Virus record (IMG/VR): IMGVR_UViG_3300042397_003635
DNA length: 64,000 nt
From: a virus
Lineage: Duplodnaviria; Caudoviricetes
Reading direction: 5' to 3' (one strand)
Shown: one piece after another, positions 26 through 62,890 of the stretch
How positions within the stretch are numbered: the first letter of the stretch is position 1
Layout: each line of letters begins with the position of its first letter
Notes under the pieces: model-generated
Databases searched by the model: none
Seen by the model: the letters and a program-made list of their open reading frames with translations, nothing else
Told to the model about the DNA's origin: nothing
Made by a program: the position numbers and the translations under genes

Positions 26-931
26 TTAACGACGACCGTATCTATTTAACATGCTCCAGTTTTTAGGTCCACCATTAACCGTGCAAATCTTAATAGATTT
101 GTGGCCGCTAGATTCTGCACAAACTGAAAGTTCTCTGCTTGTAATTCCACACTGATCTGCAATGTCAAATGCAACATGAGCAAGTTCGTCTGGATAATTA
201 AATCCTAATTCAACTATAACATCGTCATTTGTTAAAGTAATCTTTGCACCTTTACCGCTTGCTCTAAATTCATCGCAGAATTTTTCGAATTTTACGTCTA
301 GCCCTAAATCATTTTCAAATTCAATATTTTCTTCAACTGATTTAGATTTTGAATCTCCGCTAAAGAATGGTTCAACATCCTGTTTTTCATTCTTTTTAGG
401 GTTTTCTTTAGGATTAGTAAAGTGATCCTTTGGATATGTTGTAACGTTTAAAACAAATTTCTTGTTTTTAAAATCTACTTCGTAAGATTTTGAAATTTTG
501 GATCCATCTTCTTGTTCTTCCCATCCACCAACTGAAGCGCCTTTGGGCTTTTCTCCATTTAGTGTATCAAGACCAACTCCACCTTTAGAATATTGAAGTG
601 GCTTGTATTCAGATAATTTTTCAATTGCCTCAGCATCAGACTTAGCTTTAACTAACATCCAATCCTGATCAAAGTCTCCATAACTAGGAACCCAACCATA
701 CCAAGTAAAGTAGTAATCTTGTTCTTCAGCTTGAGGCTCGTCAGCTTTAACTTCTTCCTTAGGCTCATCTTCCATTTTAGGCTCTTCTGCTGCAGGTTCT
801 GCTTCTGGAGTAGGAACTTCTGGTGTAGCAGGTTCTGTTTCTGGTGCAGGAGCAGGAGGAGTTGGAACCGCTGGAGTTTCGTTTTCTTCTTCGTTTACTG
901 TAAATTTATCGAAGTTTGTTACAATTGACAT
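26..931 (-). CDS. Acidic Pro/Glu-rich protein with capsid-targeting-like N-terminus (putative internal head protein)
   Basis: 301 aa; starts MSIVTNFDKFTVNEE; PAPE-rich linker; GATAAATAA late-promoter motif at 953-961 upstream. Confidence 0.6.
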   Translation of the reverse strand: MSIVTNFDKFTVNEEENETPAVPTPPAPAPETEPATPEVPTPEAEPAAEEPKMEDEPKEEVKADEPQAEEQDYYFTWYGWVPSYGDFDQDWMLVKAKSDAEAIEKLSEYKPLQYSKGGVGLDTLNGEKPKGASVGGWEEQEDGSKISKSYEVDFKNKKFVLNVTTYPKDHFTNPKENPKKNEKQDVEPFFSGDSKSKSVEENIEFENDLGLDVKFEKFCDEFRASGKGAKITLTNDDVIVELGFNYPDELAHVAFDIADQCGITSRELSVCAESSGHKSIKICTVNGGPKNWSMLNRYGRR

Positions 932-952
932 AATTTTAGATCTTTTTCAGAA

Positions 953-1360
953 TTATTTATCTTCCGCTGTTATATCATAATGGAATCCATTACGTACCTT
1001 ATCTGAAATAGGGATAGGGCTTCCATCCTCGTCAATTCTAACAAATGTAATATGAGTAGACAGAACAATATCTTCTTCGTGAGTGTAGACATTAAATGAT
1101 CTTGCCTCCATATAAAGAGTAATGCTAGTATTTCCGACTTTAGTTATGGCACCATAGATTTTAAGTAGACTGCCTTCCTTTGCCGGCTTTTTAAAAATAC
1201 ACTCGTCAATTTTAACAGTAACCATTCTGCGATTATGTGCATATTCCATTGCATAACCAGCGGCAGCTGCATCAATCCAAGCTAGGAGCTTACCTCCAAA
1301 TAAGTTACCATGAAATCCTAGATCAGATTTCTTGATAGGGTGTTGATTCAAAAACTTCAC
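953..1360 (-). CDS. Acyl-CoA thioesterase (hotdog fold, YciA-like)
   Basis: DLGFHGNLFGGKLLAWIDAAA and VTVKIDECIFKKP hotdog-thioesterase motifs. Confidence 0.85.
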   Translation of the reverse strand: MKFLNQHPIKKSDLGFHGNLFGGKLLAWIDAAAAGYAMEYAHNRRMVTVKIDECIFKKPAKEGSLLKIYGAITKVGNTSITLYMEARSFNVYTHEEDIVLSTHITFVRIDEDGSPIPISDKVRNGFHYDITAEDK

Positions 1361-1547
1361 GTTTGTATATTGTTTTAAATTTTACCGGAAGATTTTTATA
1401 AAGATCCTCCTTTAACTTTTGAAATGCCACATCTAAAATATCAATACTAGAATTTTCTACCATTTCTTCAGTTAATCTAACTTGAACTTGAACAGTATCA
1501 TCGGGAGTTGCGCCCCGTTTTCTAATTAGTATTTCGTAATCGTGCAT
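1323..1547 (-). CDS. Hypothetical protein
   Basis: 74 aa ORF coupled to the topoisomerase stop codon. Confidence 0.55.
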   Translation of the reverse strand: MHDYEILIRKRGATPDDTVQVQVRLTEEMVENSSIDILDVAFQKLKEDLYKNLPVKFKTIYKREVFESTPYQEI

Positions 1548-2899
1548 TATTTAGTTTTTAGATTCTTCTTTAATTCTGCAAGATCAGTTCTGTACATATC
1601 GATTGGTGCAGTTTTCTTTACTGTTACCAATTCTGCAGATTTCTCTTTAACTTCATTTACTAACTGTTCGTATTTCTCTTTGGTTAAAGTTTGAATTTGC
1701 ATGCTCAACAAATAGTCAAAGCTAGAATTAATGCGGTCAAATTTTAGTTCTTCTAATTCGGTAACAATTTCTTGTTTTGGACGATTACCTAATTTAAGTT
1801 TACCATCAATAATCATCTTAATAAATCTAGCTCTATTTGAAAGATACACTAAATCCTTTTCTAAACTATCGATTAAGTAGGCTTTACGTTTATCATAATA
1901 GGTTAACCGGAATTTTACAAAGTATTCTACTAATTCAGGTAAAGCTGTAAATATTTTAAGCTTACCTCTTTCATCTAGACAAGTTAAGTTTTCGCTTTCT
2001 GTTTCGACTAATTTAAGAGTAGATTCTAATCTATCCTTTGCAATTAATTCTGAAAGTTTTGCTCGTTGAAACTTAAGAGTATACGAAATTCCATTTGAAC
2101 AATTATCTTCGTATGAAAAGATAATTCCTTTTTCTTGCAGAGAATTTAAATGGTTCTCATATTTTTGAAATGTCATTGATGGAGGCAATTCTGTAATTTC
2201 AACAGTTGTAGTATTAACTACTCGAGCAACCCCTTTAAATTGATATTGGTTATCTCCAATTCTAGAGATTGGCCCATTGAAATCCTTAAACCATGGTAAA
2301 AGTTCTCCGATTTTTTTACCATCTAAGACTTTGGTACAAGCGTCGATTAATTGAACCGGATTCCGGTTTAAGATATTTGTTGCAAATCCTACAGCAATAC
2401 CCGAACTTCCATTTAGGAGAACTGTTGGAATAATTGGTAGGAAATATTTAGGTTCGATTTCATTACCCTCTTCGATTTGAGAAGTTAAGAGCTCAAAATC
2501 TTTATAGAGTAGTCTGAAATTTGGAGTTAGCTTAGTTGAAATATAACGAGGGGCTCCAGCTTCTGGAGAACGTAGCGATCCAAACTGACCGACCTCATCT
2601 AATAGAGGAAGCGAGTTCTTAAATGATTGAGCCATTCCAATAATAGCTCCATTAAGGGATCCATCTCCATGATGATAGTGAGCATCTGCTGCAATTCTAC
2701 CACCCAATTGAAATATCTTTAGAGGTTTATCATTAGAACCTTTCCAAACTTTATCTGCAATAAAAATAATTTTACGCTGAGTTGGTTTAAATCCATCTAT
2801 TACAGAAGGAATTGCCCGATTCTCAAGAGTATACATACCATACATTGCATAGTCTTGATCTAAATATTCGGTTACTGTTTTATTATTTACTTTTATCAT
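1547..2899 (-). CDS. DNA topoisomerase II, GyrA/ParC-like subunit (T4 gp52-like)
   Basis: RAIPSVIDGFKPTQRK, YHHGDGSL, AGAPRYI (catalytic Tyr), PTVLLNGSSGIAVGFA. Confidence 0.95.
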   Translation of the reverse strand: MIKVNNKTVTEYLDQDYAMYGMYTLENRAIPSVIDGFKPTQRKIIFIADKVWKGSNDKPLKIFQLGGRIAADAHYHHGDGSLNGAIIGMAQSFKNSLPLLDEVGQFGSLRSPEAGAPRYISTKLTPNFRLLYKDFELLTSQIEEGNEIEPKYFLPIIPTVLLNGSSGIAVGFATNILNRNPVQLIDACTKVLDGKKIGELLPWFKDFNGPISRIGDNQYQFKGVARVVNTTTVEITELPPSMTFQKYENHLNSLQEKGIIFSYEDNCSNGISYTLKFQRAKLSELIAKDRLESTLKLVETESENLTCLDERGKLKIFTALPELVEYFVKFRLTYYDKRKAYLIDSLEKDLVYLSNRARFIKMIIDGKLKLGNRPKQEIVTELEELKFDRINSSFDYLLSMQIQTLTKEKYEQLVNEVKEKSAELVTVKKTAPIDMYRTDLAELKKNLKTK

Positions 2900-4022
2900 A
2901 GCTTAGTATTAATTTACCAACATAGAATACAATTGAACCCAAAATTACGCCTATTGCTAAATTATGTGTAACCACCGAAACTATAATTGTAGAAACGGTT
3001 GTTGTAAAATATAAAGGATTCTTATTAGTTAAACTGCGCCAATCTCCAGTTTCATATACAACAATTAGCATAACTCCAATTAGGCCAGCTAACGGTAACT
3101 GTTCTATATAGTTACCAAACACTAGAATTATTGAAATTAGCCCAACTGCGGCAACTATTCCAGATAGTCTGTGCTTTGCGCCAGCTCCAACATTAAGATT
3201 AGTTTGACCGACTAATACGCAACCGCCCATTGCTCCAAACAGGCCGCTTATAATATTGCCTAGACCTTGGGCAAATGTTTCTTTGGCTTTGCTGCCAGTT
3301 TCATTTAACTTATAAGATACTGAATCGACTGTCAATAGAGATTCAGTTAGACCTGATATTGCCATACCAAAAGAATAGGGCAACACAGTTAAGATTGAAG
3401 CTATTGTTATTTCGGGTAGGTTAAAACTTGGCAAGCTTGCCGTAACTGGCGAAAGATCACCAACTGTTGATAGCCCAAGTGGTATGCCAATAATACAGCC
3501 AGCTGCGATAGCAATAAGGGCTGGTGGAAAACTGAATTTCTTAGCTGACCACCACATTACTCCTGAACAGACTGCAACTGTTACTAACGTTAAACTTAGT
3601 GTTGCTGTACTGGGCAAGCCAACTGACAAATACCTGAATTGACTAGTAAGAATCATAATAGCTAGTGCAACCAAAAACCCTGAAATTGCGGATGGCGGAA
3701 TTTTGCCAAATATTTTCCAAGCAGATGTTGACCAAATTATAAGTTGAATAAGTCCTGCTACAATAACTCCAAGGAAAAGCAGATCCATTCCAGATTTTGC
3801 AACAAGACCTGCCATAATTACAGCAGTTGCACCAGTTGCACCAGAAATAAGACCAGGTCGACCACCAAAAATTGCAGTAGATAACGCCATAAATACAGCA
3901 GCCCATAATCCAACTTGAGGAGCTGCTCCAGCCAATAGCGCAAACGAAATTGCTTCAGGCACAAGTGCAACGGCAATAGTTAGACCCGATAAAATTTCGG
4001 TTCGTGTTTGAGATAATTGCAT
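2883..4022 (-). CDS. SulP-family inorganic anion transporter (membrane domain only, no STAS)
   Basis: LSGLTIAVALVPEAISFA, FGGRPGLISGATGA, AMGGCVLVGQTNLNV; many TM segments. Confidence 0.9.
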   Translation of the reverse strand: MQLSQTRTEILSGLTIAVALVPEAISFALLAGAAPQVGLWAAVFMALSTAIFGGRPGLISGATGATAVIMAGLVAKSGMDLLFLGVIVAGLIQLIIWSTSAWKIFGKIPPSAISGFLVALAIMILTSQFRYLSVGLPSTATLSLTLVTVAVCSGVMWWSAKKFSFPPALIAIAAGCIIGIPLGLSTVGDLSPVTASLPSFNLPEITIASILTVLPYSFGMAISGLTESLLTVDSVSYKLNETGSKAKETFAQGLGNIISGLFGAMGGCVLVGQTNLNVGAGAKHRLSGIVAAVGLISIILVFGNYIEQLPLAGLIGVMLIVVYETGDWRSLTNKNPLYFTTTVSTIIVSVVTHNLAIGVILGSIVFYVGKLILSYDKSK

Positions 4023-6096: not shown

Positions 6097-7305
6097 TTAA
6101 AATCCCTTTACTGGAAATCTGGTCCAGCCATTAGACCAACTAGGCTTTGCAAGCGCATCCATTTCTGATTTAGTATATGATTTTTCTACAGTACCTTGGC
6201 TTAGGGCTTTGGCTTTAACTGAGTCAGAAGTCATAATTGAAGTTGCCTTACTAATAAAATTTAAAGAAGGATCAAATGCCTGAACTTCATTATTTAAAAA
6301 TATGCTTGTTCCATTTTTGTAGTGTTGAACTGTTTCAGTTGATTCCATACTAAAACTACCTTTTTGATAACCCAATACTTTAGAGTTAGTCATTGTAAAT
6401 TGAGTGGCTCTTCTAAATCTTAAACCTAGATTATGATTGGCTAGTGATCCAGCATCAAATGGCCCAATTAAAATTACATTATCTAACTTTGGATGGGTAG
6501 TTGGAATTGCAGCAGAACCTGTTCCATCATTATCGCACTCAACTCCATTTCCAGCATCGCCATTATCTACAAATTGTGGATCTCTTTTTGATGCTGAATA
6601 TGAAATAGTACCTCTATATCCAAAATCGAAATCGAAATCATCGTCAGCTGTTGCAAATGCATATAGGTTTTTTGCATTAACAGTTCCGCCGAAAAATTCA
6701 AAGGCATCGTCATTTGCATAGACCGTTTGAATATTCTCAAGGATTGTTCCACTACCAACTCCACCTAAGGTTAAGGCATTAATTTCTGAATTTGGCATTG
6801 CTGCAATACCAGCATATTCAATTCTTACATATTTTAAAATTCCAGAATTATCATAATCATCAGATCCACCGAATGGTCTACCAATACCGCCTTCAATTGT
6901 TGGTTCAGATGTTCTATTTGTGGTGGCTTTACCTAATATTACAATACCACCCCAATCGCCTGGAGAACGTTGACCAATTGGTTGACCGGATGTAAATACA
7001 ATTGGTTTGGTTGAAGTACCCTCAGCAATAATTTTTCCGCCTCTTTCAATACAAAGAGCTCCCTTTTCAATAAGATCGCTTTTTATAATTGTGCCAGGTT
7101 GAATAATTAATTTAGCGCCATTTACTACATAAACATATCCTTTAAGAATCCATTCTCTATCTGAAGTAAGAGTTACGGTTTGAGTTATGTTTCCTGTAAT
7201 AGTATTGGTAGATGGAACTCCAATTGGATCGTCTGCTCCGCCTAAATCTTTTTCGCAGCTCATTAAGGTTAGAGCAGAAATTAAAGTTAATAAAATCTTT
7301 TTCAT
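6097..7305 (-). CDS. Beta-helix lipoprotein of the family that accompanies TonB-dependent receptors
   Basis: Lipobox LMS-C; PGDWGGIVILGKA, DNSGILKYVRIEYAG, INALTLGGVGSGT, DDAFEFFGG. Confidence 0.75.
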   Translation of the reverse strand: MKKILLTLISALTLMSCEKDLGGADDPIGVPSTNTITGNITQTVTLTSDREWILKGYVYVVNGAKLIIQPGTIIKSDLIEKGALCIERGGKIIAEGTSTKPIVFTSGQPIGQRSPGDWGGIVILGKATTNRTSEPTIEGGIGRPFGGSDDYDNSGILKYVRIEYAGIAAMPNSEINALTLGGVGSGTILENIQTVYANDDAFEFFGGTVNAKNLYAFATADDDFDFDFGYRGTISYSASKRDPQFVDNGDAGNGVECDNDGTGSAAIPTTHPKLDNVILIGPFDAGSLANHNLGLRFRRATQFTMTNSKVLGYQKGSFSMESTETVQHYKNGTSIFLNNEVQAFDPSLNFISKATSIMTSDSVKAKALSQGTVEKSYTKSEMDALAKPSWSNGWTRFPVKGF

Positions 7306-7311
7306 AGTTTT

Positions 7312-9798
7312 TTAAATTTTTAAAGTTAGTGAAATTGAAATATTTTTTTCATTTTTAATATTGATTAGATCGGCCGATCTATTATGTTGAAAAAACCTAG
7401 AGTCTTGTGATAAAATGTCTGCTATTGATAGTTTTATTTCGCCACTCTTTATTTTTTTAATAAGAACTAAATCTAAAATATCTCTAGCATTTTCATAAAT
7501 ATCTGGATAACCTTGAAAACCTACGGCTGAAATTCTTTCGCCAATTCGATTATATGTAATTGATCCAGATAAGGTACCTTTATTGATAGTTGCACCAGCA
7601 TTAATAATATATGGAGACTGTCCTTGTAAAGGTCGAGTTTGACCTCTTTCGGTTACAGTTGAAATTATTCCAGAAACATTTGAATATAGAGTTAACCACT
7701 CTGTAACCTTTTTTCTGGCATCTACTTCTATACCAGCTACAATTGCTGAGGCTGGATTTGAATATGTCATTAAGAGATTTGATGGAACTGACCCAGCATC
7801 AACCACCAATTCAATCGGCTTATTAAAGTGTTTTGCAAATACTCCAACCGAAATATTCTCTCCATTTTTTGGATAGCGTTCAAACTTAAAATCAATATTA
7901 CTAACCTTTGTTCTTTCTAAATTTGGATTGCCTATTATTTGAGCACCTCTTATAAAATCATAATAAGCAAAATTAGCAATCTCTCTAAATTCTGGTCGAG
8001 CTAAGGTTTGACTTGCAGCAAATCTAATTTTATTTTTATCAGTAAGCGAATAGGTTATATTTAAAGATGGTAGTATGTCTAAATAGTTTCTATTAATTAC
8101 TAACGCGGCTCCTCCAAAATCTGCAGTATTAACTGAAAATTGATTGTATTCTGTTCTAATACCTGCATTGATTTTTAAATTATTAAAAGTTGAATCGAAC
8201 ATTACATAACCTCCAACTAAATCAAATGCAGCTGAATATTTGTCAGTATTATTTGTAATCTCATTTAATAAATCGGCGGCTTCATATCTAAAGGTTCGGG
8301 CTTTAAAGTGTCTTAACTTTGTTAAGTATGATCCACCAAATTTTAATTGTTTAACTGAATAATTAGCTGAAGCATTTATTGAATTTTCGTTCATTACACT
8401 CCAAAATCTATAAGTATCTCGCCATACAGTTGAAAAATTATCAGAGGTTCCCAATGATTTAGCTAATGGCTGAACTCGATAATCTGGTTGATCTCTCAAC
8501 ATTAAGTTATATCCAAGATTAAAATCAAACCTATCTTTCTTAAGATCTATTTGTGAATTTAAAATAGATTTAATTATATGGTTAGAGACTTCAGACGAAA
8601 TATTCTGCATATTGTCATAGTTTTCACCAAACCTTTTTAAATAATTAGATTCAATATTTCTATTAAAAATATTCTTAAATCCAATTCGGGTTTTTCCAAG
8701 ATACGTTAGATTAAGAAGGCCGTTTATTGATTTAGTATTTGTAAAAGAAAGATCTCTATAATCGTATGCAAATTCAGTTGAAGAAAAATATTCTTTTCTG
8801 GTAATAGTTGAAGTTGAATTGGATTCTCTATAGTTAGAGCTTAATATAATATTAAGTTTCTTTTTAGTATAACCTCCAGCCAAATTAAAGGTTGAATTTG
8901 GAAGAGCTGTTGTAAAATTAGCAGATGGATTTGCAATAAGAGTAGTAAAATATTTTCTATCTGAAATATCGCTTAGTCTAAATTTATAAATGGATGGAAA
9001 ATTGGTTGGAAAATCTACTTTGGCAATTTGACCAACTTCCTTAAATGTAGTAAGCGTTCCAATTCCAAATGAAGCTCCACCAGAAATAAAATTATCACCA
9101 GCTTCCTTTGTTGTTATTTGAACTAATCCACCTGAAAAATCTCCTGGTAAATTGGCAGCCGCTGATTTAATAATAATTAGATTGTCAATAAGTGCAGTTG
9201 GAATAATATCAAACGAAAATGAACGACGATCGGGTTCAGTTGAAGGTAGTGGAGTCTTGTTTAGCTGAACAGAATTATATCGGTCAGCCAAGCCTCTAAC
9301 TAAAACAAACTTGTCATTTTGTATAGTTACGCCACTTACTCGCTTAAGTGCATCGCTTACGGTTCTGTCTGGAGTCTTTTTAATTGTTTCAGAAGAAATA
9401 CCATCTGCAACTGGCGTACTGTTTTTTACAATATTAATAACAGAAGCGGCTGATTCCTTTTTAGCAATACCCCTTACCTCGACTGCGCCAAGCGTTTGGG
9501 TTATTTCTTCTAATTCAAAATCTATTTGGGTTGGGCCTTTAATAGAAACTTCTTTAGTTAAAGGCGTATGTCCAATATAGGATGCCTTAGCTAAATAGGA
9601 TGACTCAGATAAAAAGAGTTCATAATATCCGGTCGTTGATGTAATAGCTGCGTCAGTTTTACCGGTTGTAGAATTTGTAAACTGAACTACGACTCCAATT
9701 AGAGTATCGCTTTTAGATTTAACAAAGCCACTGACTTTGGTTTGGGAATAGGCTAGGGTTGGTAGTATTACCAAGGCTAGCAGGAATAATCTTAACAA
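7312..9798 (-). CDS. TonB-dependent outer-membrane receptor
   Basis: Signal peptide; carboxypeptidase-regulatory-like N-domain; plug ALKRVSGVTI..VLVRGLADRY; FSFDIIPTALID; LARPEFRE; TTG start. Confidence 0.9.
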   Translation of the reverse strand: MLRLFLLALVILPTLAYSQTKVSGFVKSKSDTLIGVVVQFTNSTTGKTDAAITSTTGYYELFLSESSYLAKASYIGHTPLTKEVSIKGPTQIDFELEEITQTLGAVEVRGIAKKESAASVINIVKNSTPVADGISSETIKKTPDRTVSDALKRVSGVTIQNDKFVLVRGLADRYNSVQLNKTPLPSTEPDRRSFSFDIIPTALIDNLIIIKSAAANLPGDFSGGLVQITTKEAGDNFISGGASFGIGTLTTFKEVGQIAKVDFPTNFPSIYKFRLSDISDRKYFTTLIANPSANFTTALPNSTFNLAGGYTKKKLNIILSSNYRESNSTSTITRKEYFSSTEFAYDYRDLSFTNTKSINGLLNLTYLGKTRIGFKNIFNRNIESNYLKRFGENYDNMQNISSEVSNHIIKSILNSQIDLKKDRFDFNLGYNLMLRDQPDYRVQPLAKSLGTSDNFSTVWRDTYRFWSVMNENSINASANYSVKQLKFGGSYLTKLRHFKARTFRYEAADLLNEITNNTDKYSAAFDLVGGYVMFDSTFNNLKINAGIRTEYNQFSVNTADFGGAALVINRNYLDILPSLNITYSLTDKNKIRFAASQTLARPEFREIANFAYYDFIRGAQIIGNPNLERTKVSNIDFKFERYPKNGENISVGVFAKHFNKPIELVVDAGSVPSNLLMTYSNPASAIVAGIEVDARKKVTEWLTLYSNVSGIISTVTERGQTRPLQGQSPYIINAGATINKGTLSGSITYNRIGERISAVGFQGYPDIYENARDILDLVLIKKIKSGEIKLSIADILSQDSRFFQHNRSADLINIKNEKNISISLTLKI

Positions 9799-9898: not shown

Positions 9899-10150
9899 TT
9901 AATCTTCCTCGAAATGTTCTAGGCTAAATGAGATGGGTTCCAGTTCAGAATAAGATTTATTCTTATCGATTGCTGAAACTGTTGAATAGGCAGCCCAACT
10001 TCCAGTTACAGTCCAGTGTAGAGTAGACTCGTCAGAGTGGGTCTTCCATTTTTTAACATGTCCGCCATCAGCCAACTGAGTCAGGACTGTTTCAATAACT
10101 CGTTCAGAAGTTGAGTTATAGGTTGTGATATAAAATTCTATAATTTGCAT
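9899..10150 (-). CDS. Hypothetical protein
   Basis: 83 aa ORF; GATAAATA upstream. Confidence 0.55.
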   Translation of the reverse strand: MQIIEFYITTYNSTSERVIETVLTQLADGGHVKKWKTHSDESTLHWTVTGSWAAYSTVSAIDKNKSYSELEPISFSLEHFEED

Positions 10151-10165
10151 AACTGAAAATATTTA

Positions 10166-10531
10166 TCAATTACTGTGGAGGCCTTTTAGGATAAGGCGTG
10201 CACAACTTGGATTAGTTGCAAGTGGGACATTGTGTACATCACAGATTCGCATTAGCATCTGTACATCGGGTTCATGTGGATGGGCATCAAGTGGATCCCT
10301 AAAAAATATAACTGCCCCGATTTCTTTTTCTGCAACTTTAGTTGCAATTTGAGCATCTCCACCCATAGGACCAGACAGGACCCGAGTTACCTTGAGTCCT
10401 GCCTGTTCTACGAATTTTCCGGTAGTGCCGGTTGAGATAAGATTAATTCCATCTAATGCTTCACGGTTTTCCATTAGGAATGCAACCATTTCTGCTTTTT
10501 TGCCATCGTGTGCAATTAGTGCAATTTGCAT
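10166..10531 (-). CDS. mgsA: Methylglyoxal synthase
   Basis: IALIAHDGKK, STGTTG, SGPMGGDAQI, DPLDAHPHEPDV, PLATN; start moved to MQIAL at 10531. Confidence 0.95.
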   Translation of the reverse strand: MQIALIAHDGKKAEMVAFLMENREALDGINLISTGTTGKFVEQAGLKVTRVLSGPMGGDAQIATKVAEKEIGAVIFFRDPLDAHPHEPDVQMLMRICDVHNVPLATNPSCARLILKGLHSN

Positions 10532-10536
10532 GTTGT

Positions 10537-10740
10537 TTAGTTCTGTTTTTCTGTTACTAACCATGTGTTTATTACTGCGCCAAACATGTCTCGATTACTC
10601 TTGGCATGTTGGAATCTTTGACTTGCTCTAACTGCGCATTTTTCGCGCTGCTCGACTACAAGTTTCTCAGCTTCAGCAACTGTTAAATATCCTGCCTTTT
10701 TTGCAAGACTATCCATCAGTTCTCTTAACTTTCTTTTCAC
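10537..10740 (-). CDS. Hypothetical protein
   Basis: 67 aa ORF in operon. Confidence 0.5.
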   Translation of the reverse strand: MKRKLRELMDSLAKKAGYLTVAEAEKLVVEQREKCAVRASQRFQHAKSNRDMFGAVINTWLVTEKQN

Positions 10741-11077
10741 GTGCTTTCTTTATATTTTTGAGATGATTAACTACTCTCTGTAGTTTATCAGCATCCTTTG
10801 GGTTTAGTATTACCTCGTCAAAAGCCCCAAAGCGGCTCTTACGACCAAACGCATAGGCTAATCCATACCATAAGCGTTTCCAAAAACTTCGATGGTTTGT
10901 TAGGTGAATATGCATAAACGCTAGTTGATCATCTATTTGTTTATCATACTCCCACATAAATAGTATTTGATGGTCAGTCGAGTGACACTCACAAATTAAA
11001 ACTTCTTGGTTTTCCATATATTTTATACTAAGGTTATTAAATAGGGTCTCCGGATTTCCACTGATGTCCACAGTCAC
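10709..11077 (-). CDS. Hypothetical phage protein
   Basis: LICECHSTDH...FWKRLWYGLAYAFGRKSRFGAFDE. Confidence 0.6.
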   Translation of the reverse strand: MTVDISGNPETLFNNLSIKYMENQEVLICECHSTDHQILFMWEYDKQIDDQLAFMHIHLTNHRSFWKRLWYGLAYAFGRKSRFGAFDEVILNPKDADKLQRVVNHLKNIKKAREKKVKRTDG

Positions 11078-11166
11078 TGCAATAGGTGCTAGATCTTAAA
11101 TCATAGTTGCTACCGCAATTAGTGCACTTATGCCAGATTTCATGGTTAAAGATTCTTTGTATTAAC

Positions 11167-11706: not shown

Positions 11707-11720
11707 TTTATATTTTAATT

Positions 11721-16998: not shown

Positions 16999-17025
16999 TA
17001 ATAATTATGGTTTGTTTGTAGTTAT

Positions 17026-19361: not shown

Positions 19362-19435
19362 TTTAAAATTGTTAAATTTATTTGTAGTTATTTATCTTGT
19401 ACTAAAAGCTATGATTTAGTTAATTGATCTTAGCC

Positions 19436-20739: not shown

Positions 20740-20755
20740 ATACTTTATTTATTTC

Positions 20756-39252: not shown

Positions 39253-39255
39253 ATG

Positions 39256-42529: not shown

Positions 42530-42564
42530 TTTTAATTTGCTATTTCTTATTATTTATCCAAAGA

Positions 42565-42870: not shown

Positions 42871-42927
42871 GAAACCAACTAAATGGGTTTTAGTACAAAT
42901 AAATAACTACAAATAAACCAAATAGTA

Positions 42928-46922: not shown

Positions 46923-46993
46923 AATATATTATACTTAAGTTTTAGTAAGTCGGCACTAATAAATATCTCTATAAATCATAAAATCTTTGACTA

Positions 46994-47619: not shown

Positions 47620-47690
47620 AATTCTATTATACCTAATCTCTGGTAAAGAGTATTAGATCTGGATAAATAACTACAAATAAGATATACTTA

Positions 47691-49929: not shown

Positions 49930-49930
49930 T

Positions 49931-51226: not shown

Positions 51227-51227
51227 T

Positions 51228-51884
51228 ATGAAAATTCAAAGATTTAAACAATTTATAAATGAAAGCGAGGAATATCTCGATGAACCTGCAAAAGAAATGT
51301 TTAATGAGCTTCTAACTCAAATTGCAGATGAAATAGACGGTCAATCTGGCTGGATGGCTTCCGTAAATGAAAACTCTAGTACCCTACGTATTGACCAAGA
51401 TTGGAATATTGATGATTTAAACTATGAAGGCGATGAGCCTAGAGTTTATGCAAGTTATACTGCAACCTTTAAAATTGCTTTTCAAGATGATTCAACTCAA
51501 TTATCCCCAGAAGTAGTTAGACTTTGGAAATTAGGATTAGCGCCAATTACTGAATTAATTAAAGGATTCGATCATATTTGGGGTTTTAGTATTGATTCAA
51601 AGGATGTCCCAGAATTAGATATTCAAGAAGGAAATAGCGAATTTGAGTTTATGTCAATTGAAGATTTGACTGGAGGCGCAACTGCTGATTTAACTGACAT
51701 TGAAGCTTTTGCAACTGACTTAATTGAAACTCTTAATGGTTGGTTAGACGAACAAACTTATATGTTACACGATAGAGTTCAAGAAGAATTAGACATGATT
51801 TCTGGTTATGGTGATGACGACGAAGAAGAGGATGACGATGATTATGAAAACGATGATGACGATTTTTCTGAAGACGAAATTTAA
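51228..51884 (+). CDS. Putative internal head protein (acidic)
   Basis: MKIQRFKQFINES; VRLWKLGL; poly-Asp/Glu tail. Confidence 0.6.
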   Translation: MKIQRFKQFINESEEYLDEPAKEMFNELLTQIADEIDGQSGWMASVNENSSTLRIDQDWNIDDLNYEGDEPRVYASYTATFKIAFQDDSTQLSPEVVRLWKLGLAPITELIKGFDHIWGFSIDSKDVPELDIQEGNSEFEFMSIEDLTGGATADLTDIEAFATDLIETLNGWLDEQTYMLHDRVQEELDMISGYGDDDEEEDDDDYENDDDDFSEDEI

Positions 51885-53114: not shown

Positions 53115-53190
53115 TGGAATAGACTCGTTATTTTAGTTTATCTATCTTAGTGACGATAAATAATAATGTAGTACAAGATAATTAAATCAA

Positions 53191-54042
53191 ATGCAAAATA
53201 TGCAAGTTAGACAATTTACAGACTGGTTAGGCGAAGCAGTGGCTCCAGCAAAGACTTATACAAAAAAGCTTTCTGAGCTTAATCCGCAGCGAAAATACAT
53301 TGGAGATACCTATAATACAGATCTTTTTTTAAGATTTAAACACCTGGCTTCAATTAGAGACAAACATGGAAAAAGAATTGGTGTTGAAAAATGGTTTGAA
53401 CTTGCTCAACTTGAAGATAAGGGATTCTATTCTGCTGTGTTGGCTGACCAAATGGGACAGCCCGATGTTCGCGAACTTTGGAGAGATATGATGGGTAGAA
53501 ATGCAAGTAAAGTTAAAGGTCAAGTTAATTTTAAAGATCCATTTAAAGGAAGCGAAGATACTGAAGATGAAGTTAGAGATTTAAGCCTAAGTGAAAGTGT
53601 TGAAGAACCTATTACAATGCAGTCAAATCTAGATTCAACTTGGACTTTAGTTATTACTTATCCAAATGATTCATTATATGCTAAAGCTCAGCCATACTTT
53701 GAAAAGCTTGGAATTGCATTTGCAAATTTGGCAAGCCAAACTGTTTATTTTGATGGATCGGAAGTAAGCGAAGCCTATTTCACAAAGGATCATATGCTTG
53801 CAGTTGAAGCACATGAAATTGGACACTCTATTGCAAATCATCAAGGGGAACCATATTATTCTAAAAGACAGGAACAAGAAGCAGACTTTATTGGAATCAA
53901 TTTGCTAATTCAAAATTCTTTAACTAAAGCTGCAAATATTCTAGCAGAAAGATTCTCAAATCATTATAATATTGAATATACAAAACTGGCTGATTCTGAA
54001 CAACTTACTGAACTACTAGAAGATTACTTACTAGATAAATAA
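53191..54042 (+). CDS. Putative internal head protein with C-terminal zincin-like metallopeptidase motif
   Basis: VRQFTDWLGEA; EAHEIGH..EQEADFIG; GATAAATA at 53155. Confidence 0.6.
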   Translation: MQNMQVRQFTDWLGEAVAPAKTYTKKLSELNPQRKYIGDTYNTDLFLRFKHLASIRDKHGKRIGVEKWFELAQLEDKGFYSAVLADQMGQPDVRELWRDMMGRNASKVKGQVNFKDPFKGSEDTEDEVRDLSLSESVEEPITMQSNLDSTWTLVITYPNDSLYAKAQPYFEKLGIAFANLASQTVYFDGSEVSEAYFTKDHMLAVEAHEIGHSIANHQGEPYYSKRQEQEADFIGINLLIQNSLTKAANILAERFSNHYNIEYTKLADSEQLTELLEDYLLDK

Positions 54043-56705: not shown

Positions 56706-56785
56706 TTACAATTAAAGTTTGTTTTTTATACTCTAGAAAAAGGGTTTGAACCCAAATAAATATCTATAGAAATATTTAATAACTT

Positions 56786-58600
56786 ATGCACAAATCATTC
56801 CTAGACCTAGTATTAGAGTCAAATCAGATTGAGGAAATGGCCCTAAAGCCAGAAGATTTTCCAGATACCTATCTCAAAAAGGCAAAGGATCGTCAAGCTA
56901 TCGCTAGAGAAATTGCTCCACTTGCTAAACAGTTTCAAGAAGCTTTAGTTAATTTAAATTGGAGAGAAATTACTTGGTCAACTAGAGGAAGTAACTATTA
57001 TCCAATCTTACCTGCTCCAATTTTGGCAATTTATGCTGAAGCAAAAGGTAAAATTGGTGGAAATGGCGATTCATTTATTAATAATTATATGAATAACAAT
57101 TTTGGTAAATGGGCTGATGCAAATAACCAAAGTGACTGTATTCATATGGAAGTAGACTCAAGTGGTCGTTCACACTTTCCAGGCGGAGGAATTCCAAGTT
57201 CGCTTAGAGGAGCTAGACTTGGTTATAAGTTGTATAGAGGTCTTCTTGAACAAAAGAAATGGTTAAAATCAAATACTGCTGGGACACTAGAAAAAGATAA
57301 TGCTTGGGCATCTTTAATTTCTCCAAAATTAAATGCAGATGGATCTCTTAGTGATGATGATGTACATGCAATTCTTGGACCAGACTGTGTGTTTGCAATG
57401 GTTAAAACAATATCTAATGATCAAAAAATTAGATTTGCAACAAGTTTCCTAGATAATAATATTAGTTATAGTTCAGTTAATACCAGAAATTTTGGAATTG
57501 ATGATGAACTTAAAGCAATTTTGCCAGCTGAGCTGATGTCAAGGTTTGACCCAGCAGAGCGTGAACGTCTTGAAAGAGAACGTCGAGAAAGAGAACAAAG
57601 GGAACAGGCCGAAAGGGCGCGTCAATATGGGATTGATCGAGGAATTCAATGGGAAGATCAGCCTGAAGTCGGAGACCTTGTTTATGTTAGAAACTATGCT
57701 GCAAATAGAGACACCAGTATTCCAATGAGAATTATTGTTGGTGAAAGAGGCGGAAGTGTTTACGCTATAAACCTTGTACATTTCCTAATGTGGAGAGATC
57801 AACTAAATTCTGATATGAGCGAACTTGGTGGATTTGATACTAGAAGCTGTTCTAATAATCCTCAATCAATTAAAGAATATTTTGTTAAAGTAGATCCTGC
57901 ACAAATTCCAGGTTTAGAAGAAGATTCAACAGTTGTTCGTAGTAGATATTCAACGTCAGAATGGCAACAAGTTAAAGATCTTATCTTAAGTATGGTTGAT
58001 CCAGAACTTGCAGCTAGAATGAGAGCAGAACGCGAAGAAAGAGAACGTACAGAAAGAGAAGAGCGTGAAAGAGCTGAAGCAGAAAGACAAGCTCAACGCG
58101 CACAAAATGAAGAAAGATTTGGACCAAGCGTAGATAATTTCCAAGATGCCCAATATAAAGAGGCTCTAGACGGTCGTAACCCTGGCGGAACTTATATTGC
58201 TAAAATATTTAAGAGAGGCCAAATTACAGATATTGCACTTTCACCAGATCAACTAGATCGATTTAACAGAAGAAAATCAACTCCAGTATTTTTACCAGCA
58301 AGAAATGCTTATTGGAATTCAATAAATGGATTTAAGATTGATGAACCAATCGATGGATTGGGACTTACTCGATTCCGTTTAGAAAGATTTGATAGCAAAC
58401 GAGCAACCACTCCAAATGAAATGCTTTATATTGCATCGCATAATACTTATTATGGTTTAGTTGCGCCAGTTGATTACTTTGTATTCAATCAATCAAGAAA
58501 CGAAGAATACATTTACCTAAGAGTGTTTGATAACACTACCGGTAGAGCAAGAAAAATTGCAATTAAGGTTGCAGCTCTAAGAAAAATTGTTGCTTATTAA
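56786..58600 (+). CDS. Putative internal head protein with GNAT-like N-terminal motif and E/R coiled coils
   Basis: MHKSFLDLVLES; IPSSLRGARLGYKLY; AATAAATA at 56755. Confidence 0.5.
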   Translation: MHKSFLDLVLESNQIEEMALKPEDFPDTYLKKAKDRQAIAREIAPLAKQFQEALVNLNWREITWSTRGSNYYPILPAPILAIYAEAKGKIGGNGDSFINNYMNNNFGKWADANNQSDCIHMEVDSSGRSHFPGGGIPSSLRGARLGYKLYRGLLEQKKWLKSNTAGTLEKDNAWASLISPKLNADGSLSDDDVHAILGPDCVFAMVKTISNDQKIRFATSFLDNNISYSSVNTRNFGIDDELKAILPAELMSRFDPAERERLERERREREQREQAERARQYGIDRGIQWEDQPEVGDLVYVRNYAANRDTSIPMRIIVGERGGSVYAINLVHFLMWRDQLNSDMSELGGFDTRSCSNNPQSIKEYFVKVDPAQIPGLEEDSTVVRSRYSTSEWQQVKDLILSMVDPELAARMRAEREERERTEREERERAEAERQAQRAQNEERFGPSVDNFQDAQYKEALDGRNPGGTYIAKIFKRGQITDIALSPDQLDRFNRRKSTPVFLPARNAYWNSINGFKIDEPIDGLGLTRFRLERFDSKRATTPNEMLYIASHNTYYGLVAPVDYFVFNQSRNEEYIYLRVFDNTTGRARKIAIKVAALRKIVAY

Positions 58601-59352: not shown

Positions 59353-59951
59353 TTTAATTCTTCTATCTTGTCAATCATCCAATCGGCGTTGACGGGTTTA
59401 TAACCTGTTATACACGCACAAGCTGACATAGTTCCCGCTAATGGGTGAACGTGAGCGTGTGAGTGTCCATATAAGTGATAGGCTCCACGATATTTACCAT
59501 TCCATTCGTAAAGAGGATAGTGGAATAGGACAAATCTTTTAAGACCCCATTCGCTATCATCTTTAATCATAATTTCTTTGTAGTTTGTAAATTCTACAAT
59601 ATCCATTACTGAGCTTAAATTATAGAGCCATGCTTGATCTATGTGAAGATCGTGGTTTCCAATAATCCAGTGAACTTTTCCAGGAAGTTTTCCAAACTTT
59701 CCTAGGTTTTCACGAATGTGTTTGAATTTAGTTCGCTCCATTGCAAGATCACCTAAGAAAAAAACGTGATCATCCGGTCCTACCGCTTCATGCCAGTTTT
59801 TGGCAATTGCATGATCGTGTTCTTTTATATCAGAAAAGTTGTGTAAGCCTTGTTCAAATCGTAAGACATTTCCATGTCCTATGTGTAAATCGCTAATGAA
59901 CCAAGTTGTGGCTCTGTCAAATGTGTTTTCTGTACTAAATATTTGTTCCAT
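59322..59951 (-). CDS. Calcineurin-like metallophosphoesterase
   Basis: SDLHIGH, LGDL, GNHD, HYP, GHSH. Confidence 0.9.
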   Translation of the reverse strand: MEQIFSTENTFDRATTWFISDLHIGHGNVLRFEQGLHNFSDIKEHDHAIAKNWHEAVGPDDHVFFLGDLAMERTKFKHIRENLGKFGKLPGKVHWIIGNHDLHIDQAWLYNLSSVMDIVEFTNYKEIMIKDDSEWGLKRFVLFHYPLYEWNGKYRGAYHLYGHSHAHVHPLAGTMSACACITGYKPVNADWMIDKIEELKCKLETQSSE

Positions 59952-61011
59952 CTAATAGTTTATTACTAACATACTCGAATGCAGTTTCAGCGTCGTGCAT
60001 TACTTTATCTTTCTGTTGGTTAGCTAAATCAGTTAAGGCTTTATCGTATTTGGATGAGGTTCTGTGTTTATGCAGTTTTTGTGCATAGATCTTAACAACT
60101 TCTTCTAAAAATTCCTTTGAACTATTATACTTAAAATTTGGTAAATCGTATGTACCAGTTTTTTCAAGAGTTCTGGCAAATCCTAAAATTCCATTACAGA
60201 TTTGTTCAAGTGAAAGTTGAGTTACATCAATTCCAGGGTGTTCATTTAGATAATCATCAATTACAAGTTCGCGTTTAGTACCTGCAAACTCATCAACAAA
60301 TTCTGCAAGGTGAAGAATAAATTTAGAAAAATCTCTAGTAATAATTTTTTCTTCAACGTCTTTGCGCATATTAGGTCCAACTAATTCGCCATTCTTAATT
60401 TTAGCAACAACTCCACGATCTGTAACTGAAACATCGAGCGCATTACCAAATGATTGATATAGGAACCCTACAACAAATCCTTTTACACCTCTAATTGGAG
60501 TATATCTAGATTTTGCCCATTCTGCAGAATAGGTAAAAGTTGGAATAATATCTACCTGAACTGGGCCGTCTTTCAAATTAATTACAAGTTTAAGACTACC
60601 GTCAGAAATTGCATCGCTTTCTTCTGCATCAATTTCGGGTTGGGGATTTTCTTGAATCCACTTTAACATAAGTTGATTGTACTCTTTCATTGTATCAATT
60701 TCAACTCTCCTTGATTGAGGTTCAGTTAAAGGATATTCAACTAAAATATCAACATCACCATATGCTTTATCTGGGTTTTCTGTCATGTCTTGTTTAAAAT
60801 AAACACCAGATCCACCTGGACCGAGCACTTTTAGTGGAGCCATTTCTAGTGACTTTGCGTACTTATTAAATTTAGAAAAAATCATTTCTAAAACTGAGAC
60901 AGATTCTTCCAGCACAGCTGGCGTAATTTTAGTCCCCTGAGTTTTTGTGGTTGCCCAACCTCCCATTTCCTGTATTTTTAAAAATCCTTGAAAAGATTCA
61001 ATAATTCTCAC
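59935..61011 (-). CDS. Nucleotidyltransferase-like protein with capsid-targeting-like N-terminus
   Basis: GSG..YGDVDILVE..VQVDII; starts MRIIESFQGFLKIQE; late promoter at 61031-61039. Confidence 0.55.
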   Translation of the reverse strand: MRIIESFQGFLKIQEMGGWATTKTQGTKITPAVLEESVSVLEMIFSKFNKYAKSLEMAPLKVLGPGGSGVYFKQDMTENPDKAYGDVDILVEYPLTEPQSRRVEIDTMKEYNQLMLKWIQENPQPEIDAEESDAISDGSLKLVINLKDGPVQVDIIPTFTYSAEWAKSRYTPIRGVKGFVVGFLYQSFGNALDVSVTDRGVVAKIKNGELVGPNMRKDVEEKIITRDFSKFILHLAEFVDEFAGTKRELVIDDYLNEHPGIDVTQLSLEQICNGILGFARTLEKTGTYDLPNFKYNSSKEFLEEVVKIYAQKLHKHRTSSKYDKALTDLANQQKDKVMHDAETAFEYVSNKLLDGTNI

Positions 61012-61030: not shown

Positions 61031-61588
61031 TTATTTATCGAAACCTAGCTTCTTTAGCTCTGCAATAGTTTCCTTGGCACTAGTATGTAAAATGCCAGTT
61101 CCACCGGCTGCAATCCAAGCATCAAGTTTCTTTGGCGTATCATCAATTAAAATATCCTGAGGCCCTGTTGCAAATTCAAATTTGTTACCATAGAAAATAG
61201 TCTTTTCTTTACCTGTCCAGTCTTCCTTTTTTGTAATATATGGAAAATCCCAATTTAAATTTTTCTTAAGCCATTTAGCTTTACCGGTAATTGACTTTGG
61301 ATCAAGCGACGGTGAAGATAAGATAGTTGGGTTAAACTTTCTAATAAAAGACCAAAGGTCAATACCATCAGTCATCCATTCCATGCCTGCCCAAAACTCT
61401 TCTCCGGCTTTTCCAACAAGTTTCCAACTTGCATTTTTTGAATATTCCCTTTGAAATTCTTCGATAGTCATGCCAGCCTCCTTTTCAAACTGGGAATCCC
61501 AATCTGAAAGTACTCCATCCATGTCGCAAAAGATTCTCATCGGTTGAGCGCTCTCGTTAAATTGTGTGTATGGTTTAATGTATTGCAT
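61031..61588 (-). CDS. 5'(3')-deoxyribonucleotidase (HAD, NT5C-like) with capsid-targeting-like N-terminus
   Basis: IFCDMDGVL, ILSSP, ILIDD, GGTGILH; starts MQYIKPYTQFNESA. Confidence 0.8.
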   Translation of the reverse strand: MQYIKPYTQFNESAQPMRIFCDMDGVLSDWDSQFEKEAGMTIEEFQREYSKNASWKLVGKAGEEFWAGMEWMTDGIDLWSFIRKFNPTILSSPSLDPKSITGKAKWLKKNLNWDFPYITKKEDWTGKEKTIFYGNKFEFATGPQDILIDDTPKKLDAWIAAGGTGILHTSAKETIAELKKLGFDK

Positions 61589-61595
61589 ATTATAT

Positions 61596-62396
61596 TTATT
61601 GTTGTAGACTTGGAACCCAATGTGTAGTTCTGCCGTCTGCAGTTTTTTCTCTAATTACTGTATTTCCATGAGGATCTTCTTTTTTTCCATATACCTCAAA
61701 TTCAAAAACAAAGTCTCCCGATTCTCCAGTAACTTGCTGATAATTTCTAATACTTGCTCCGCCCTGTGCGTATGATACCCTACTAATTAATTTAGAATAG
61801 TCCCATAGTAATTGAATCTCATTATCGGTAAGATCCTTAACCAATCTATGTGGGGAAATCTTAGAACGATATAGCATTTCACATTTAATATAGTTTCCAA
61901 TTCCTGCAAAAAGTCTCTGATCCATTAGTGCTTCTACAACAGTTTTATTTGGAACCCTCTCAAATGATCTAAGCGTATTATAAACAGATGCAGTTGTATC
62001 ATTTAGTGCATCGACTCCTAGGGTTTTTAATTTTGCGTCTAACTCAACCTTACTTGCAAATTTAAGAGTACCGAATCGGCGCTGATCAATAAAAAATAGT
62101 TCAAGACCATCATCAAATACAAGTTTAATATGCGCATGGGGTTTTTGATAGATTGACCAAAATCCGCTCATTCCCAATGTAATCCAGATAGACATGGCGC
62201 CTTCCAATTCTAACCAGATGAATTTGCCTTTAACTCCACCGCCAACTACCTCCAGGGGCAGCTCCAGGGCTCCCAGGCCAACTGGGGGAGTCTTTAAGAA
62301 TCGACCGCCAAGTATGTCTACCCTAGCTAGTTTTTTATTAATTGTGTAATTTAGCAAACCTTCATATACGCGTCTGCACTCTGGTCCTTCTGGCAT
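61596..62396 (-). CDS. Fpg/Nei DNA glycosylase (zincless finger)
   Basis: MPEGPE, KGKFIW, LGMSG, DQRRFG, AGIGNYIKCEML (H2TH); C-terminus lacks the four Cys. Confidence 0.9.
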   Translation of the reverse strand: MPEGPECRRVYEGLLNYTINKKLARVDILGGRFLKTPPVGLGALELPLEVVGGGVKGKFIWLELEGAMSIWITLGMSGFWSIYQKPHAHIKLVFDDGLELFFIDQRRFGTLKFASKVELDAKLKTLGVDALNDTTASVYNTLRSFERVPNKTVVEALMDQRLFAGIGNYIKCEMLYRSKISPHRLVKDLTDNEIQLLWDYSKLISRVSYAQGGASIRNYQQVTGESGDFVFEFEVYGKKEDPHGNTVIREKTADGRTTHWVPSLQQ

Positions 62397-62461
62397 ATCC
62401 TATTTTTTGATATTATACCCAATTCGCGCAAATAAATAACTACAAAATAGATCTATTTAAA

Positions 62462-62890
62462 ATGATTTACAATTTCAAAGATTTCGTTACTAAGGTTGAC
62501 GAAAACGTAAACTCTGAAGAGTTTTTAAACAAATTTGGTTTAACTGAAGAAGAAGATGCAACAGCAGCAGACGCTCCAGTTGAAGATGCACCAGAAGAAG
62601 ACGCTCCAGTTGCTGACGAAGCTGCTGATTTAGAAGCTTTCAAAAAGGAACACCTTGATGTAATGTTCAATGAACTTTCATCTGATGACTTTGATTCATT
62701 CTATTCTTCAGAATTCAAAGAGTGGAAAGAAATGGAAGATGGTGAAGACAAAGAAGCTAAAAAAGAAGAACTCCTTACTAAAATCAAGGATATGTTCCAA
62801 TTAGGTGAAGAAGACAAAGAAGAAGCTCCAGCAGAAGACGAAGCACCAGCTGAAGATGAGCCGGCAGCAGAAGAAGCGCCAGAAGCATAA
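62462..62890 (+). CDS. Highly acidic putative prohead core/internal protein
   Basis: MIYNFKDFVTKVDEN; EDAP repeats; AATAAATA at 62431. Confidence 0.55.
   Translation: MIYNFKDFVTKVDENVNSEEFLNKFGLTEEEDATAADAPVEDAPEEDAPVADEAADLEAFKKEHLDVMFNELSSDDFDSFYSSEFKEWKEMEDGEDKEAKKEELLTKIKDMFQLGEEDKEEAPAEDEAPAEDEPAAEEAPEA

Follow-up and report, generated by a model that had tools for sequence, protein, structure and literature searches.

Why do so many unrelated proteins of one phage begin with nearly the same short peptide? The question is raised by a 64,000-nucleotide stretch of DNA from the IMG/VR virus record IMGVR_UViG_3300042397_003635 (Duplodnaviria; Caudoviricetes), called here, over its whole length, the window. 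In the window, 21 of the 112 open reading frames (ORFs), about one gene in five, open with a solid N-terminal tag that resembles the capsid targeting sequence (CTS) of phage T4. These tags probably represent a greatly expanded T4-style system of prohead-targeting, protease-clipped leaders of the CTS type, and the probability of this reading is put at roughly 0.7.

The source of the window is an uncultured, T4-related jumbo phage of Bacteroidota. The G+C content is 35-45%, the coding density is high, and the window encodes both T4-type topoisomerase II subunits, secreted proteins with Bacteroidota-style lipoprotein signals, and many small ORFs. Genes were called as simple longest ORFs. A megablast search of deposited phages with two window pieces of 11-12 kb gave no match and no near-identical record; the nearest deposited genomes are uncultured megaphages of 634-735 kb. 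Three other IMG/VR contigs are related. G001 is 98-99% identical to the window at 44.9-64 kb and more divergent at 37.5-43 kb (84-98% over the aligning stretches). G003 and G001 come from one sample; G003 matches most of window 1-29.8 kb at 91-97% identity, with one stretch at 78%. G002 measures 216.8 kb, has an estimated completeness of 84%, and encodes orthologous proteins that are 59-94% identical.

The tag and its enrichment at N-termini

The tag has the consensus [IVL]-K-x-[FY]-x-x-[WF]-[LI]-x-E and begins one to five residues past Met1 in all 21 solid cases. MKTIKDFINE (ORF start 11706) and MKTLKQFLQE (49931) show a short, T4-like form that lacks the x-x-[WF] turn. Position 7 (F/Y) is the most informative column at 3.6 bits, position 4 is I, V, L or F, and the commonest ending is INE. 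The original prediction had listed 24 coordinates with their N-termini, and all 24 do start ORFs with the N-termini quoted. Its estimate of about 24 tagged proteins stands for the 21 solid cases, with the ORFs starting at 931 and 62462 as probable variants and that at 56786 as a possible aliphatic variant. It does not stand for the 145-amino-acid (aa) ORF at 21635-22072 (-), which has a GTG start, opens with VLINRHTISESF, fell below threshold in the regular-expression and matrix scans, and was rejected.

The motif is enriched at N-termini over internal positions by each of three methods. A regular expression for the core matched 19 of the 112 N-termini and 6 of 17,645 internal positions. With a position-specific scoring matrix (PSSM), 20 tags scored 9.6-25 bits, and the best of 49,161 internal positions reached 12.2. 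The matrix was built from the window's own tags, and the independent evidence comes from G001, G002, G003 and a megaphage: three N-termini from G001 beyond the window, outside the training set, scored 11.9, 17.8 and 18.2. An unbiased search over the first 16 residues, by gapped residue triplets, found K...L.E, LFE and IK.F enriched at the window N-termini (p down to 2.6e-11). The same search recovered pieces of the motif in G002 and in the first 400 kb of megaphage LR745206 (p down to 9e-23), where a relaxed pattern matched 87 of 571 N-termini and 50 of 1,656 internal-Met controls. The ending is likewise concentrated, as [LI]-x-E lies within residues 7-22 of 16 of 20 tagged and 6 of 61 untagged proteins. 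Four tags lacking it at the usual place carry I-N-E, L-N-E or I-Q-E three to six residues downstream.

A motif of this kind could be a by-product of AT-rich codon usage or of a translation-initiation constraint at the 5' ends of late mRNAs. The genome has 35% G+C, the codons for Lys, Ile, Phe, Asn and Glu are A/T-rich, and all tagged genes have a late leader in common. On the other hand, Trp (TGG) is frequent in the tags and occurs at position 10 more often than any other residue, and the motif is missing from late tail and baseplate genes that have the same promoter. In the AT-rich jumbo phage PTm1 of Tenacibaculum, a Bacteroidota phage used as control, the motif is not enriched (10 of 311 N-termini and 25 of 957 controls). 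Codons at the variable tag positions differ freely, with four Leu codons in use, and the constraint therefore acts on the peptide, not on the RNA. The codon explanation is accordingly regarded as highly improbable.

Likeness to the T4 capsid targeting sequence

The CTS and the polymorphic ip genes found in T-even phages belong to textbook knowledge. Two T4 genes open with MKTYQEFIAE, in agreement with the statement in the original prediction that T4 internal proteins (IPs) use this sequence. For packaging, ten residues from the start of IPIII are enough; targeting depends on CTS residues 4 and 7 and processing on residues 8 and 10, and gp21 cuts after L/I-x-E (PMC9026906). Tag positions 4, 7, 8 and 10 are conserved, which are exactly the residues mapped in the T4 CTS. 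Like the leaders of IPI, IPII, IPIII and Alt, the tags are N-terminal, 10-13 residues long and placed on unrelated proteins, with a hydrophobic residue at position 4, Phe at position 7 and an [LI]-x-E ending. Two tags share 5-6 of 10 residues with MKTYQEFIAE. Further likenesses to the T4 CTS and the T-even ip loci are the late timing of the genes, a gp21-type protease in the lineage, and a repertoire that varies among strains.

The system differs from that of T4 in scale. T4 has three Ips and at least 10 are reported for the T-even phages together, all found by their leader (PMC12373910; PMC3012670), whereas in these 64 kb 21-24 genes are tagged; G002 has about 25 such genes and the megaphage (400 kb) probably 60 or more. 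Most tags here also have an extra helical turn (x-x-W/F) before [LI]-x-E, and the predicted cargo includes recognisable enzymes. The CTS has been suggested as an evolutionary device for loading diverse proteins (PMC9026906).

Protein loading is also known from the giant phages phiKZ, 201phi2-1 and SPN3US, which have protease-processed inner-body and ejection proteins. In these a distant gp21 homologue cleaves numerous head proteins behind Glu (19 of them in 201phi2-1), and a large packaged protein mass is ejected into the host (PMC9026906). Their propeptides are of varying length, share no N-terminal tag and are cut at S/A-x-E sites. In the window, by contrast, the set is marked by one recognisable leader, and the cargo is therefore predictable from sequence. 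Literature searches found no paper that joins 'capsid targeting' with jumbo, huge or mega phages, and a comparative survey of jumbo phages does not mention these tags.

Late promoter and timing

Of the 21 solid tagged genes, 13 have a box [AG]ATAAATA 12-36 nt upstream, in many cases extended to ...AACTACAAA; among the 91 untagged genes, 7 have it (Fisher p 2.6e-7). The other eight tagged genes each stand directly behind a tagged gene on the same strand, and the claim of a late promoter upstream of most tagged genes is upheld. In G001, approximately twenty genes for tail, baseplate and sheath proteins have the same box in front of them, and none of these genes has the tag. Since the box is common to tagged genes and untagged tail genes, the tagged genes are a subset of the late genes. 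Late timing makes sense for enzymes destined for the next cell.

The early-type cassette at 28-39.5 kb was said to lack the tag, and indeed none of its approximately 35 small ORFs has one. Many ORFs of this cassette (28000-39600, -) have a conserved (T)AATCAATTAAA box 12-25 nt before the ATG.

Capsid, protease and scaffold in related genomes

The G003 contig carries the left-half genes of the window and, about 77 kb upstream, a gp23-like capsid protein and a 677-aa protease-scaffold ORF, whose first approximately 180 residues form a gp21-family protease. In G002, PF07068 (gp23-type) matches with an expectation value (E) of 3e-49 and PF03420 (gp21-type) with E 2.8e-14, and the protease aligns to T4 gp21 through the GELxHP and SSR motifs (His, Ser). 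The protease domain matches 815 deposited phages, T4-like for the most part. Neither profile has a match in G001, because G001 is a fragment without the head module.

The protease-scaffold fusion (G002 156284-158314, -; G003 10106-12139, -; also L012 and L013) carries 11-13 tandem 14-residue repeats and is conserved from 260-kb jumbo phages to 640-kb megaphages. Its scaffold part consists of 11 tandem units of the form I-x-Y-[ST]-E-Y-[LIV]-A-E-N-L-x-K-x, and megaphages have approximately 13 comparable units. Seven of the 11 repeats match the tag core [FYW]xx[FYW][LIV]xE. In the G002 proteome (68,629 residues) this core occurs 37 times: 14 times at N-termini (positions 5-9), 7 times in the scaffold repeats and 16 times elsewhere. 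Protease and scaffold also form one polypeptide beside the capsid gene in lambda C/Nu3, P2 gpO and the PTm1 'prohead core scaffolding protein and protease'. The fusion here differs from these in that its scaffold is 11-13 copies of a 14-residue unit with the core Y-x-E-Y-[LIV]-A-E, and from T4 in that protease and scaffold are fused and the tandem scaffold repeats have their core in common with the tag.

PTm1 was set aside as a cultured model, as its N-termini are not enriched in the tag, and served as the negative control. Its capsid protein has I-N-E sites and its fusion is built with other repeats, and it shows no tag expansion. Across these few lineages the type of scaffold repeat and the tag expansion co-vary, which is suggestive.

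The N-terminal arm of the capsid protein has a conserved I-N-E, found as AGSINE/A in G002, AGAINE/S in G003, and QINE/N or SINE/N in two megaphages (the slash marks the cut, which is predicted in these four). It lies near the position of the T4 gp23 cut after FLTE65 (FLTE/A). The tags, too, most often end in INE. The capsid module has small tagged proteins on its flanks. Next after the capsid gene comes a 117-aa Lys/Ser-rich basic protein with the tag MANQVLSYTEFLTE (G002 154089-154442, -; G003 7989-8342, -), which is a candidate DNA-associated internal protein like the T4 IPs.

The proposed loading system

In the favoured reading, the tagged proteins would be made late in infection alongside the head proteins. 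The amphipathic tag, hydrophobic at position 4 and aromatic at 7 and 10, would bring them into the scaffold core of the assembling prohead, where the gp21-type prohead protease would cut after the Glu of the terminal [LI]-x-E and free the mature protein inside the capsid. The cargo would then exit with the DNA at the next infection. Besides many proteins of unknown fold, it would comprise a 2H phosphodiesterase, a nucleotidyltransferase (NTase), a deoxyribonucleotidase-like enzyme and a cell-wall amidase. The T4-CTS interpretation in the original prediction holds for the motif, the T4 match, the portability of the tag, the late genes and the machinery in relatives, and is weaker on packaging, cleavage after Glu and injection, all of which are inferred.

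Entry into the core may depend on a resemblance of the tag to a single unit of the 14-residue scaffold repeat. In this tentative and rather doubtful extension, the tag would copy the repeat core, the carrier would co-assemble with the scaffold, and the cuts that dismantle the scaffold would free it. Huge Bacteroidota phages could thereby pre-package about 10% or more of their genes as injected cargo, including an Acb1-like phosphodiesterase. If so, immune second messengers could be degraded by this enzyme as soon as infection begins.

Several points weigh against the loading system. The tags of the ORFs starting at 931, 15641, 20404 and 61588 lack [LI]-x-E in residues 7-22. The gp21-type protease is shown for the relatives G003 and G002 and not for the genome of the window itself, and in the MAFFT alignment the I-N-E of the capsid arm does not match the T4 site column for column. 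The likeness of tag and scaffold is confined to a seven-residue core, and the repeats are tandem duplicates and not independent events. Late expression fits lysis or assembly roles equally well, for example for the amidase. With 10-20% of the genes tagged the capsid would be very crowded, and some tagged proteins may therefore be low-copy or unpackaged.

The tag could also address a partner outside the capsid, such as a modifying enzyme that reads it as a leader like that of ribosomally synthesised and post-translationally modified peptides, the phage GroEL/GroES, a membrane site or another hub protein. Chaperonin partners are apparently at hand, as G001 has a GroEL-like ORF (114679-116271, +) and a GroES-like ORF (129009-129323, +), both judged by their N-termini alone. 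A radical S-adenosylmethionine maturase was set aside, since no such gene was found in G001 or G002 and all control genomes gave matches. No signal peptides or transmembrane segments were found behind the tags. Apart from the tagged set, the core motif is concentrated in one protein alone, the protease-scaffold fusion. The tag also finishes with the gp21 cleavage motif and agrees with the T4 CTS when compared position by position. A partner outside the capsid is quite unlikely on this evidence.

Proposed cargo and portability of the tag

Most tagged proteins belong to no recognisable family in Pfam and PHROG searches, and the PHROG search gave nothing for nine of ten. The families that are found are mutually unrelated: 2H, NTase, Amidase_2, NT5C-like and a weak OmpA-like part. 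From the enzyme list of the original prediction, the 2H phosphoesterase (by Pfam and fold), one NTase (barely above the Pfam cut-off), the amidase (Amidase_2) and the nucleotidase (via PF06941 homologues) are firm; the second NTase and both 'proteases' fell below cut-off and are leads only.

2H phosphoesterase: The Acb1-like 179-aa protein at 11167-11706 (-) carries the short tag MKTIKDFINE and matches PF23474 with 32.4 bits (cut-off 27). Its H57-x-T59 and H132-x-T134 are invariant or nearly so among 48 sequences. The AlphaFold2 (AF2) model has a mean confidence score (pLDDT) of 91, and residues 1-12 alone fall below 50. The top Foldseek matches are phage and poxvirus cyclic-nucleotide phosphodiesterases, Usb1 and Acb1. 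The 2H fold, both HxT motifs and PF23474 are shared with Acb1 (FBB1, T4) and the viral cyclic-nucleotide phosphodiesterases. In contrast, identity to the solved Acb1 is approximately 16%, Usb1 and LigT match the fold equally well, and activity on the cyclic oligonucleotides of the cyclic-oligonucleotide-based antiphage signalling system (CBASS) is putative. No report was found in the literature of an Acb1 with a capsid-targeting leader. Among approximately 75 distinct N-termini of the family, nearly all have a leader that ends in [ILV]-x-E a few residues ahead of the domain and varies by lineage. The homologue of the non-T4-like Maribacter phage Molly_1 has no leader, and its domain begins at once. 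A cluster look-up of the 2H homologues named no cultured relative.

Nucleotidase, amidase and NTase: The 185-aa 5'(3')-deoxyribonucleotidase-like HAD enzyme at 61031-61588 (-; PSSM 20.1) has the tag MQYIKPYTQFNES, followed by AQP and then by an internal Met that opens the domain (MRIFCDMDGVL). Its NT5C-like homologues carry PF06941; some are leaderless, with DMDGV at residue 7-10, and others have various leaders. The 221-aa N-acetylmuramoyl-L-alanine amidase at 41864-42529 (-) has the tag MAKHVKLFEGWLSD, PF01510 with 43 bits, a PSSM score of 21.1 and the box GATAAATA at 42551-42558. A sequence search of solved structures gave nothing for the nucleotidase-like protein or the amidase. The 254-aa protein with an NTase domain at 14877-15641 (-) has the tag MRYIKLFEDLE (PSSM 14.7) and PF01909 with 23.2 bits (cut-off 21), and lies directly behind the tagged gene at 15649-16998.

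Conserved helical protein: The 431-aa protein at 49931-51226 (+) has the short tag MKTLKQFLQE, followed by ASL. It has 248 homologues, and nearly all of the best 120 begin with a tag variant followed by E-A-S-L; megaphage orthologues open with MKNFKDFMNE and MKNFSKFLEE. Its AF2 model has a pLDDT of 85, with residues 1-10 and two internal loops below 50, and a fold search gave no match in the PDB.

When the window is compared with G002 or G003, cargo genes are found exchanged, shortened or re-tagged, and the N-terminal tag is retained. Both AF2 models leave the tag unfolded. Judged from these comparisons and the two models, the tag is a detachable, portable leader that is predicted to be dispensable for the fold of its protein.

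The 2H and NT5C enzymes of other uncultured phage lineages bear other leaders, among them MIKLLDLLKEE, MxxxFKRMQKLAGI-I-x-E and MYKLTDLYKQLKEEE. In view of these differences, lineage-specific versions of the loading code may be widespread. In G002, tag-like sequences also occur inside ORFs, at residue 89 of 165764-166483 (-) and residue 52 of 188076-189452 (-) (RVLTFSSFLNE and KVLRFADFLNE, respectively). Such sequences may mark sites of cleavage or targeting within the protein, or starts that were mis-called. A DNA-ligase-like ORF of G001 with IQEFIES scored below threshold and was set aside as unproven; the sequence may be an N-terminal helix common to ligases.

In a further explanation, the tag is a substrate and assembly tag of the prohead protease and scaffold, and the majority of its carriers would not be effectors for delivery. 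They would instead be short-lived parts of the core that are degraded and expelled, or enzymes that are inactive until clipped and act late in the same infection, such as the amidase in lysis. In T4, cutting of the core proteins gp22, gp67 and gp68 yields fragments that exit the head (PMC9026906). Among the tagged proteins, many are helical or of low complexity and have no enzyme domain, and the amidase and the OmpA-like protein could serve lysis. Against this, the 2H phosphodiesterase, the nucleotidase and the NTase keep intact, confidently folded catalytic domains right behind the tag, which is the pattern of T4 IPs and Alt and not that of a scaffold. The repertoire is also hypervariable among strains, which is unusual for structural core parts. 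A role limited to core assembly or late enzyme activation is thus considered unlikely.

The contribution of this case lies in how far the set has expanded, in a long tag form, in the recognisable enzymes of the cargo, and in the core common to the tag and a repeat-built scaffold fused to its protease. Huge phages have hundreds of genes of unknown role and large capsids with room for protein cargo. If the loading system is real, sequence alone would list the proteins that uncultured huge phages bring in with their DNA, the first actors against host defences, and the T4 loading code would scale from a handful of proteins to 10-20% of the gene set. Packaged enzymes that degrade nucleotide signals or modify nucleotides would be candidate counter-defences. 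The short tag forms are close enough to the T4 CTS for trial in the T4 packaging system.

Other tagged reading frames

Left part of the window: The 301-aa ORF at 26-931 (-) has the probable tag variant MSIVTNFDKFTVNE (PSSM 9.6), followed by a Pro/Ala-rich linker, and a promoter box GATAAATA at 954-961. It has no Pfam or PHROG match, and its G003 orthologue has the same tag. The 449-aa ORF at 15649-16998 (-) belongs to no known family and opens with MANILRYQNWLSE (PSSM 21.2; box GATAAATAACTACAAA at 17023-17030). The 398-aa ORF at 18165-19361 (-) opens with MATIKLFESWLQSQAINE (PSSM 24.3; box at 19389-19396) and has a weak OmpA-like C-terminal part (PF00691, 18.6 bits, under cut-off); G003 has a different tagged gene in its place. 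The 322-aa ORF at 19436-20404 (-), with MKHLMLYEEW (PSSM 14.3), lies directly behind the 112-aa ORF at 20401-20739 (-), which has MKHVNNFNSWRETSQINE with I-N-E six residues past the core (PSSM 16.4) and the box AATAAATA at 20746-20753. The 224-aa ORF at 22062-22736 (-) opens with MSSIKTFTAWINE (PSSM 22.2), and its G002 orthologue with MNNILTYTEFITE. The 130-aa ORF at 22744-23136 (-) has MWVKLFEGWLRE (PSSM 24.9) and the box GATAAATA at 23160-23167.

Middle part: The 141-aa ORF at 40060-40485 (+) opens with MNKIKSFKEYLVE (PSSM 19.2; box AATAAATA at 40028-40035). It is followed by a 334-aa ORF at 40489-41493 (+) with a GTG start and MKYIKPYQLFES (PSSM 17.6). Residues 20-141 of the latter form a weak Zn-protease-like domain (PF05618, 24.5 bits, under the cut-off of 27), and its G002 orthologue retains the tag and the C-terminal half without the inserted domain. 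The 571-aa ORF at 42928-44643 (+) has MEIKRYQDWLFE (PSSM 25.3) and the box AATAAATAACTACAAA at 42898-42905. The 136-aa ORF at 46994-47404 (+) has MKYAKPFTQFISE (PSSM 21.2) and the box AATAAATA at 46958-46965; a G002 relative is alike in the C-terminal 97 aa only and has a different tag.

Right part: Four tagged genes are tightly packed at 47691-51884, and a fifth, at 53191-54042, stands approximately 1.3 kb beyond with its own promoter box. The four comprise, besides the 431-aa protein, a 209-aa ORF at 47691-48320 (+) with MSYFKKFGEFLNE (PSSM 17.3; box GATAAATAACTACAAA at 47662-47669), a 543-aa ORF at 48298-49929 (+) with MRIIESFNSWKRSDRLLNE (PSSM 19.2), and a 218-aa ORF at 51228-51884 (+) with MKIQRFKQFINE (PSSM 20.2). 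The 543-aa ORF has a weak homologue in megaphages that adjoins the 431-aa family. The fifth gene (53191-54042, +; 283 aa) opens with MQNMQVRQFTDWLGE (PSSM 20.2; box GATAAATA at 53155-53162) and has a weak metalloprotease-like motif (PF01435, 18.8 bits, under cut-off; phrog_87, E 5e-4). The 604-aa ORF at 56786-58600 (+), with the possible aliphatic variant MHKSFLDLVLE and the box AATAAATA at 56755-56762, was missed by the PSSM and the regular expression; its N-terminus resembles the L-L-D-L-L-x-E leaders on the 2H homologues of other phages. The 358-aa ORF at 59935-61011 (-) has a GTG start, MRIIESFQGFLKIQE (PSSM 18.6) and the box GATAAATA at 61032-61039. It belongs to a viral-only family, and its NTase lead is faint. 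The 142-aa ORF at 62462-62890 (+) has the probable variant MIYNFKDFVTKVDE, which a relaxed regular expression matches, and the box AATAAATAACTACAAA at 62431-62438.

Neighbouring genes

SusC/SusD-like pair: At 6097-9798 (-), an 828-aa TonB-dependent receptor (Plug, barrel, CarboxypepD_reg) is followed by a 402-aa lipoprotein. This block is missing from the close relative G003 and is therefore a strain-specific insertion.

Sulfate permease: A SulP-family sulfate-permease ORF (PF00916, E 4e-38) lies at 2883-4022 (-), exactly between the two topoisomerase II subunit genes. It is not at that junction in G003.

G+C-rich island: The region 23200-28000 has a G+C fraction of 0.41-0.45, against approximately 0.35. 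It contains a protein with a MerR-type helix-turn-helix and a resolvase part at 24294-24929, a 372-aa ORF at 26788-27906 with weak P-loop NTPase matches that are all below Pfam cut-offs, and an adjoining 373-aa ORF of no family. The island looks like a mobile insertion.

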